DNA of 10,087 bases from positions 1 through 10,087 of IMG/VR virus record IMGVR_UViG_2737471839_000018. One strand, 5' to 3'. Source of the stretch: a virus (lineage: Duplodnaviria > Heunggongvirae > Uroviricota > Caudoviricetes). The position numbers and the translations under genes are program-made. Shown here one piece after another: positions 3,920 to 4,859 of the stretch (the first letter of the stretch is position 1; the number at the start of each line of letters is the position of its first letter). Under the pieces are notes generated by a model. The model searched no databases. It was not told where the DNA came from and saw only the letters and a list, made by a program, of their open reading frames with translations.

Positions 3920-4330
3920 TCAGAACGGAATATCATCACCGTAAGGGTCATCGCCTCCAGCTGGTGGCTGATTACCCTGTGTGCTTGTGGTCTTGCGTCG
4001 GCTCCCGCCAGGACGGGCAGCACTGGCACTGATTACACTGTCTGCGATAACCTGATAACCCTGCCGCGTTTCCCCGTTCTGTCCGGTCCACTGGCTAACC
4101 TGTATCGTGCCGGATACGCTGGCAACATCGCCTTTTTGATGTTTAGCCAGGTAGTCGGCCTGCTTGCCAAATGCGATGACCGACAGCCATAACGTCGCCT
4201 GTCCGTCCTGTGCCTGGCTGCATGGCAGCGATACCGCCATACGAGCCAGCGTCATTGGTGTGCCCTTGCTGGTCTGTTTTACCTGCGGGTCGTCCACCAG
4301 CCGCCCGTAAGCGGCTATCTGTGCTGTCAT
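3920..4330 (-). CDS. ssb: Single-stranded DNA-binding protein (SSB)
   Basis: 136 aa. OB-fold-like blocks (GRLVDDPQ, WLSVIAFGKQA, QKGD, WTGQNGETR), a Gly/Pro/Gln-rich linker, and a C-terminal acidic tail ending DDIPF. ATGA overlap with the upstream gene. Confidence 0.85.
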   Translation of the reverse strand: MTAQIAAYGRLVDDPQVKQTSKGTPMTLARMAVSLPCSQAQDGQATLWLSVIAFGKQADYLAKHQKGDVASVSGTIQVSQWTGQNGETRQGYQVIADSVISASAARPGGSRRKTTSTQGNQPPAGGDDPYGDDIPF

Positions 4331-4572
4331 GATTCCACCTCTCCGGTTTTAACGTTGATGGTTGTTACCTGTTCCGCTTCGGCAATCTCCCGTTCTGTCA
4401 GCGTGGCAAAGTTTGCCGCCGTCGTGGTCATGAATGCGCTTATCAGTTCGGGATGTGCTTTCGCGTATCCTTCCCCGGCGTTGCGGTCGATGATTTTTAT
4501 CGCCACCCTCAGCCAGTGTTCTGTCAAATCAAGGGCGTGAGATTGTGGTTTTTTGGCGTGCTTCGTTGTCAC
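4327..4572 (-). CDS. Hypothetical protein (81 aa), coupled to ssb
   Basis: Only an in-frame GTG start at 4572, with GAGGT about 8 nt upstream. Stop overlaps the ssb ATG. Lies directly downstream of the iteron region. Confidence 0.5.
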   Translation of the reverse strand: MTTKHAKKPQSHALDLTEHWLRVAIKIIDRNAGEGYAKAHPELISAFMTTTAANFATLTEREIAEAEQVTTINVKTGEVES

Positions 4573-4620
4573 AGGCTTTACCTCACAGCAATAAAATAAA
4601 ATTTTTGCATTTCAACCCTT

Positions 4621-4846
4621 CACCTGTTCACCTTTTGCAATTTTCCCTTTTTATTCATAATGTTAAGGGGTGAACAGTTTCACAAAAACTATTCACCAAC
4701 TGTTCACCACTGTTCACCCTTAAAGCTCAATAAAGAATCAAAAAGGTGAACAGTGAATAGTTTGGTGAACAGTTCATAAATAACTGCTCACCCTATAATA
4801 TACTGATATAAAAGACATTTATTGCAGGGTGAACAGTGGTGAACAG
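4621..4846. repeat. Iteron cluster / putative origin of replication (TGTTCACC octamers in both orientations in an AT-rich context)
   Basis: Perfect TGTTCACC at 4625-4632, 4701-4708, 4711-4718. Perfect reverse GGTGAACA at 4669-4676, 4745-4752, 4764-4771, 4828-4835, 4838-4845. Degenerate copies near 4692, 4754 and 4785. To my recollection this octamer is the P4 alpha-binding type I iteron of ori/crr. Confidence 0.75.
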
Positions 4847-4859
4847 TTATTCCATAAGT

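Follow-up and report, generated by a model that had tools for sequence, protein, structure and literature searches.

We report that an array of 12 copies of the octamer TGTTCACC and its variants is very probably the vegetative replication origin in a phage-inducible chromosomal island (PICI). The array occupies positions 4617–4845 of a 10,087-bp viral sequence (IMG/VR record IMGVR_UViG_2737471839_000018), hereafter the window, by which we mean the whole stretch analyzed. The window is an Escherichia coli PICI of the type represented by EcCICFT073, which serves as the model for Gram-negative PICIs. Its array lies 15 nt past the stop codon of pri, which encodes the predicted initiator Pri (Pri/Rep), and is followed by a gene for an 81-aa protein and by ssb. 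We base this reading on comparison of the array and of Pri with the origins and initiators of EcCICFT073, of the satellite P4 and of a set of relatives.

The window contains nine perfect copies of TGTTCACC, where 0.28 would be expected by chance and at most two appeared in 200 shuffles. Eight of the nine lie within 4625–4845, at 4625, 4701 and 4711 on the plus strand and at 4669, 4745, 4764, 4828 and 4838 on the minus strand. GC content is 0.28–0.43 over 4580–4880, compared with about 0.45–0.65 in the flanking DNA. These counts and this composition agree with the original prediction, which had described eight perfect octamers (three forward, five reverse) plus degenerate copies in AT-rich DNA 3′ of a helicase gene. 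Two of the degenerate copies carry one mismatch (TATTCACC at 4690 and TGCTCACC at 4785, both on the plus strand), and two carry two mismatches and keep the TCAC core (CCTTCACC at 4617, plus; TATTCACT at 4752, minus), for a total of 12 sites (eight perfect, four degenerate). Because a C precedes every one of the 12, the real repeat unit is the 9-mer CTGTTCACC. The sites form a dyad, with the midpoints of its six mirror pairs at 4730–4731.5, made of two mirror-image six-site arms that each comprise two sites, an AT spacer of ~35 bp, one inverted site and three further sites. Where the array had been called bidirectional and placed at 4621–4846, both orientations are indeed present, but the arrangement is dyad-symmetric rather than merely bidirectional and spans 4617–4845 in full. 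No GATC (Dam) sites occur in the array, and an Rfam search of the window returned no match. The parts of the array are listed below.

4617–4845, no strand: complete 12-site iteron array, proposed replication origin, in two inverted six-site arms
4617–4632, plus strand: left arm, outer pair, CCTTCACC (4617–4624, 2 mismatches) and TGTTCACC (4625–4632)
4633–4668, no strand: left AT-rich spacer, 36 bp, GC 0.25, with a resemblance (z about 4) to spacers in the crr repeats of P4
4669–4676, minus strand: left arm, lone inverted iteron, perfect
4690–4718, plus strand: left arm, inner triplet, TATTCACC (4690), TGTTCACC (4701) and TGTTCACC (4711), spacing 11 + 10 bp
4719–4744, no strand: central AT-rich segment, 26 bp, on the dyad axis (about 4730.5), where the inner triplets converge; candidate melting site
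4745–4771, minus strand: right arm, inner triplet, TGTTCACC (4745), TATTCACT (4752, 2 mismatches) and TGTTCACC (4764)
4785–4792, plus strand: right arm, lone inverted iteron TGCTCACC, 1 mismatch
4793–4827, no strand: right AT-rich spacer, 35 bp, GC 0.23
4828–4845, minus strand: right arm, outer pair, two perfect TGTTCACC 10 bp apart, 15 nt past the pri stop codon
4588–4612, no strand: A/T run ATAAAATAAAATTTTTGCATTTCAA, adjoining the distal pair of iterons

In Gram-negative PICIs, the initiator gene has the origin directly on its 3′ side, where sets of iterons border AT-rich DNA, and the pri-ori segment of EcCICFT073 drives plasmid replication (Fillol-Salom et al. 2018, PMC6092414). Without the primase, the CFT073 ‘Primase-Ori’, which has served as a conditional replicon, is lost (Brodel et al. 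2024, PMC11338833), and the supplement of that study prints a sequence labeled ‘Origin of replication (Primase)’. By sequence comparison, we identified this printed origin as the 288-bp intergenic array that follows the primase gene of CFT073 on its 3′ side. Counted from the stop codon, its sites fall at 15+, 24+, 72-, 92+, 103+, 112+, 145-, 156-, 176+, 224- and 233-, and those of the window at 15+, 25+, 68-, 89+, 101+, 108+, 142-, 152-, 163-, 184+, 228- and 236-. The window array is thus collinear, site by site, with a published primase-dependent origin, in line with the probable satellite origin first proposed. The likeness extends to gene order, to a first site 15 nt past the pri stop codon, to a 2>1<3>3<1>2< layout and to overall length. 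The assay of a cloned origin with the primase supplied in trans, which the original prediction had put forward as a check, has already been done on this sister element (PMC6092414, PMC11338833).

The two elements differ in the repeat itself. The CFT073 iterons are TGTCTACC/TATCTACC and those of the window are TGTTCACC; relatives in Yersinia and Edaphovirga carry TCTCCACC iterons on the same scaffold as both. EcCICFT073 Pri is 49% identical to the window Pri overall and has the same N-terminal domain, but its C-terminal wing segment, the part of the protein discussed below as a probable determinant of specificity, is only 26% identical. The window and EcCICFT073 are probably separate specificity groups. 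Relative to EcCICFT073, the window additionally encodes a Nu1-like small terminase. The organizational logic extends to the PICIs of Staphylococcus (SaPIs), in whose origins iteron sets flank an AT-rich region 3′ of rep (PMC6092414); iterons, host and lineage are unrelated there, and the analogy is one of organization and placement only.

The domain architecture of Pri is consistent with an initiator that binds the array. Its regions are as follows.

4860–6692, minus strand: pri/rep gene, 610 codons from a GTG, with the ATG at 6677 as its likely start
6288–6677, minus strand: N-terminal domain, about 130 aa, of Toprim-like fold, not the P4 alpha primase domain
4899–5189, minus strand: winged-helix origin-binding domain, codons 502–598, homologous to PDB 1KA8
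4923–4970, minus strand: segment covarying with iteron class, codons 575–590 (MKRKTKHGLRSNVTLT)

Pfam assigns D5_N, DUF5906 and Pox_D5 domains to Pri, with a weak match to PPV_E1_C. Residues 150–605 are 50% identical to residues 320–776 of P4 alpha, which comprise its helicase and C-terminal origin-binding domain, and residues 502–598 match the structure of the alpha origin-binding domain (PDB 1KA8) with E=4e-24. These matches bear out the suggestion that the helicase has an alpha-like C-terminus and predict that Pri is a superfamily 3 (SF3) helicase of the D5/P4-alpha type carrying a C-terminal winged-helix origin-binding domain. The N-terminus is not of the alpha type: the zinc-binding/Toprim primase region of alpha is replaced in Pri by the shorter, ~130-aa Toprim-like domain, in which we did not find the canonical acidic motifs by eye, and the label ‘primase’ given to the protein at first is unproven.

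This N-terminal domain also occurs in other settings. Among the E. coli proteins P0002, P0003, P0080, P0088 and P0048, some (233 aa) have this domain (99% identical) joined straight to an SSB domain, and one has it joined to PerC. These fusions suggest that in some islands the helicase, the origin and the gene for the 81-aa protein were lost by deletion.

The octamer links the array to P4. In RefSeq record NC_001609, our P4 reference, an 8-bp ‘ori type 1 repeat’ is annotated in both ori (9310–9413) and crr (4291–4590), and the repeats read from that record are TGTTCACC and one-mismatch variants of it. The octamer had at first been taken for the type I iteron of P4 ori/crr, and this comparison upholds that identification. 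A nucleotide search with the array recovered a single match in a phage database, to vB_KppS-Ant at 72% identity, and did not recover P4 at the DNA level. This match is a Klebsiella ‘phage’ resembling a capsid-forming PICI (cf-PICI). Ziegelin et al. are said to have found in 1993 that P4 alpha binds the type 1 repeats.

Successive sites are separated by 8/44/21/11/10 bp in the left arm of the window and by 10/43/21/12/7 bp in the right arm (reverse complement). The six type-1 repeats of P4 ori (reverse complement) are separated by 10/43/22/11/10 bp and the repeats of P4 crr by 9/43/11/7/14 bp, so that both window arms are closer to the ori layout than to that of crr. P4 and the window hence have in common the octamer, the six-site spacing (with P4 ori) and a position 3′ of the initiator gene (with P4 crr). 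They differ in how the units are deployed: in P4 a distance of about 4.7 kb separates ori, with one unit, from crr, with two directly repeated ones, whereas the window joins two units at a single locus into an inverted repeat, and is not bipartite in the manner of P4 ori plus crr. P4 may need both ori and crr because two six-iteron units are generally required, a requirement that PICIs would meet with one compact palindrome.

P4 crr, located 3′ of alpha, is needed in cis for replication, which starts elsewhere. If the window array were such a cis-acting replication enhancer, the island would need, as P4 does, a further origin at another place. We consider this quite improbable. The position of the array is identical to that of crr, directly 3′ of the initiator gene, and the left-arm spacer together with the neighboring A/T run is similar (z about 4) to its counterparts in the crr repeats. 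From int to terS, however, the window has no second iteron cluster, with one perfect copy outside the array (at 6131), and the arms fit the ori layout better. The EcCICFT073 array alone, moreover, supports plasmid replication when the primase is supplied in trans (PMC11338833).

The copy outside the array (6131–6138, minus strand) lies within the pri coding region and, as a single extra copy, is within chance. A one-mismatch copy, AGTTCACC, is also found in pri at 6163–6170 (plus strand), 32 bp from it and in inverted orientation. P4 has an internal ori2 in alpha, reportedly without type I iterons.

Several points weigh against reading the array as the origin. Its place 3′ of the initiator gene is that of P4 crr, a site where replication does not start. 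It uses another iteron than the origin validated in EcCICFT073, and an origin function is accordingly proposed here by homology. Finally, the wing of Pri is assigned by topology only, a single-sequence AlphaFold model of the domain having a predicted local distance difference test score (pLDDT) of 38.

To compare relatives, we used a one-genome-per-species scan, which yielded 80 loci; with P4, vB_KppS-Ant, CFT073 and the window, the set comprised 84 sequences. Of these, 83 have an iteron cluster no more than 400 bp beyond the 3′ end of the gene; the one without, L067, has an apparently truncated open reading frame (ORF). The 83 clusters fall into four classes by iteron core: TTCACC (64), TCTACC (7), TCCACC (9) and TCCGCC (3). 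We aligned ten class-A orthologs with the window origin; they came from Klebsiella-type, Kluyvera, Raoultella, Pluralibacter, Citrobacter, Pectobacterium and Pantoea sequences. Conservation was 82% in iteron columns and 54% in spacer columns (p=3e-10). Chance or low-complexity sequence as the source of the array was rejected on the shuffles, the site layout and this conservation of iteron columns.

Iteron class follows one segment of Pri, about 25 residues near the C-terminus (residues 575–598). The segment KRKTKHG-----LRSNVTL (in P4, KRHTKQG-----IQTNLTL) accompanies the iteron TGTTCACC; RAKCTKGPDKGRVITNVLL accompanies TGTCTACC; RKKSTKG----NMRSNIRL accompanies TCTCCACC; and KAESKKKATRGRIQSNITL accompanies TGTCCGCC. 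The mapping from segment to iteron is not one-to-one, because iterons of the TGTCTACC class also go with a further, different segment, that of the CFT073 protein. The most direct view of the correspondence comes from an Escherichia ruysiae relative (L007), whose Pri is 98% identical to that of the window in the helicase, 85–87% over residues 481–574 and 33% over residues 575–598, and whose iterons are TGTCTACC. The DNA of the helicase core is about 90% identical, but near 4972 (codon about 573) identity drops sharply and does not recover in the origin or past it, which indicates that the C-terminal segment and the origin, only a few hundred base pairs from each other, were swapped together. 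The recombination breakpoint is thus at about codon 573: in L007 (4290–4640, against 4923–4972 of the window), the C-terminal segment has been replaced along with the origin and all that lies downstream. The L007 origin has a different site layout (28-, 39-, 59+, 70+, 114-, 122-, 211+, 220+, 265-, 276- and onward).

The covarying segment comes after the conserved-tyrosine helix and the helix that follows it, a position that points to the β-hairpin wing; from winged-helix topology, we infer that residues of about 575–590 form this wing. The wing is one of the two usual DNA-contacting elements of winged-helix domains (PMC2777425). The segment is a probable determinant of specificity, and the wing codons with the adjacent origin may be exchanged by recombination as one block, a few hundred base pairs long, allowing escape from cross-talk. 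The covariation also bears on the idea that the array is a packaging (pac/cos) or partition (centromere-like) site, roles that repeat arrays can have and that the Nu1-like small terminase encoded in the window might recommend. We regard such a role as extremely unlikely: the repeat is the predicted recognition sequence of the DNA-binding domain of a replication initiator and covaries with that domain, no partition genes were seen in the window, and the cos sites of EcCICFT073 are reported to lie apart from its ori (PMC6092414).

Window-type origins are present in 668 of 5,426 complete E. coli genomes (about 12%), at up to six places per genome; 564 genomes carry the CFT073 type and 1,115 that of P4 crr. 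Classes A and B are each paired with alpha-type, PICI-type and other N-termini, and iteron class therefore assorts independently of N-terminal architecture. One such pairing is a 790-aa protein of Enterobacter hormaechei (L015) that combines an alpha-type N-terminus with iterons of the TGTCTACC class, from which it follows that iteron class is not tied to P4-like versus PICI-type architecture. Two further loci are altered. A Pectobacterium brasiliense locus (L019) retains seven perfect iterons, but beyond about residue 565 the C-terminus of its Pri is read out of frame and the wing segment has 7% identity; in a metagenome-assembled genome from Enterobacterales (L027), a deletion inside the origin leaves only part of the outer sites. 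These two origins may be decaying or dependent on factors supplied in trans.

Two loci from O157 strains place the same module in different islands. One (L084; NZ_CP044148 4796588-4810874) is a short PICI near tRNA-Ser/clpA, and the other (L085; NZ_CP038374 2247240-2261526) is a cf-PICI at roxA/pepT with portal, protease and terminase genes; these two island backbones contain one pri-plus-origin module, with origins 94–99% identical. This finding agrees with a report that the left part is common to PICIs and cf-PICIs (PMC10085698).

Modularity of this kind is relevant to whether the array acts chiefly in transcription, as promoter or operator of the 81-aa gene, ssb and perC, under the control of Pri or another protein. 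The array does sit directly upstream of these genes on the same strand, and a promoter function for the 81-aa gene and ssb had been suggested for it at the outset. Iteron-binding initiators, furthermore, often autoregulate. A scan of 4300–5000 found no σ70-like promoter on the coding (minus) strand and no terminator between pri and the downstream genes, which counts against that suggestion, and the same array stands upstream of different genes in the two O157 islands. Gram-negative PICIs are also described as unidirectionally transcribed (PMC6092414). We judge a mainly regulatory role to be quite improbable and retain the array as the candidate replication origin.

We propose the following sequence of events at such an origin. 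Island induction would lead to synthesis of Pri, with its Toprim-like N-terminal domain, SF3 helicase and winged-helix origin-binding domain. The origin-binding domain would recognize CTGTTCACC at the 12 sites, with the wing (about residues 575–590) reading the central bases of each. Two SF3 helicase rings could then assemble head-to-head on the converging units, by analogy with papillomavirus E1 and SV40 large T antigen, and the AT-rich DNA would melt, either at the center or at the 35-bp spacers. Bidirectional replication would start from there, with primers that could come from the Pri N-terminal domain or from host DnaG. Both E1 and large T antigen are SF3 helicases fused to an origin-binding domain and act on palindromic sites around AT-rich DNA. 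Their origins have no sequence relationship to that of the window, and a double hexamer is envisaged here from the analogy only. The A/T run at 4588–4612, which is kept across genera (as ‘ATTTTTTAATTTTAT’ in relatives) and has a counterpart next to each crr repeat of P4, could have a part in unwinding or in priming.

The rest of the window supports its assignment to the EcCICFT073 type. All genes are on the minus strand, in the order int-alpA-icd-DUF4222-pri-array-81aa-ssb-perC-capsidE-gpD-Nu1 terS, and from DUF4222/pri to the head-decoration gene this order is the same as in EcCICFT073. The capsid protein is lambda-E-like, the decoration protein gpD-like and the small terminase Nu1-like. Flanking features are as follows.

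8849–10087, minus strand: int
within 8223–8561, minus strand: alpA (Pfam Phage_AlpA)
7293–8213, minus strand: Icd-like ORF, 306 aa
4327–4572, minus strand: 81-aa gene (phrog_1231), the first past the origin
3920–4330, minus strand: ssb

In the 306-aa ORF, only the last 50–90 residues match Icd-like/repressor families (NCBIfam NF033153, phrog_6196), and the long N-terminal extension is probably untranslated. Some markers of P4 were not found in the window: P4 has a cnr gene, of which the window has no homologue, and the DUF4222 gene upstream of pri has no similarity to P4 Cnr/ORF106. None of P4 sid, delta and psu was identified among the window ORFs.

Origins of this kind have been validated experimentally, and the iteron is known from P4. 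A full-text literature search for the octamer gave only unrelated primer and sequence matches, and none when the octamer was combined with ‘iteron’. In the accessible literature, we did not find it stated that each arm is built as an ori-like unit, that specificity maps to the segment adjoining the origin or that a single iteron alphabet is common to P4-like, PICI and cf-PICI elements. Our analysis assigns a function to a conspicuous non-coding array found in about 12% of complete E. coli genomes, and it shows a common modular initiator/origin toolkit among PICIs, cf-PICIs and P4-like satellites, with at least four iteron ‘alphabets’. Having a small protein segment as the probable determinant of specificity could aid the design of orthogonal conditional replicons, such as those already in use for non-replicative payloads delivered by phage (PMC11338833).

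The two-unit layout also offers a testable explanation for the bipartite origin of P4. It is possible, though we hold it only tentatively, that TGTTCACC and the alpha-type wing define one replication-specificity group common to P4-like, classical PICI and capsid-forming PICI satellites of the same E. coli strains. Such a group would fit the speculation that Sp7 of O157 Sakai, whose alpha-like gene is broken, is replicated by proteins of Sp13 (P2-like) or Sp2 (P4-like) (Asadulghani et al. 2009, PMC2669165), as well as the reported under-co-occurrence of these satellite families (PMC10085698). If the group is real, the initiator of one satellite could fire or titrate the origin of another, leading to cross-activation or to iteron incompatibility. 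The shared alphabet thereby raises the testable possibility of cross-talk or incompatibility between satellites that reside in the same cell.
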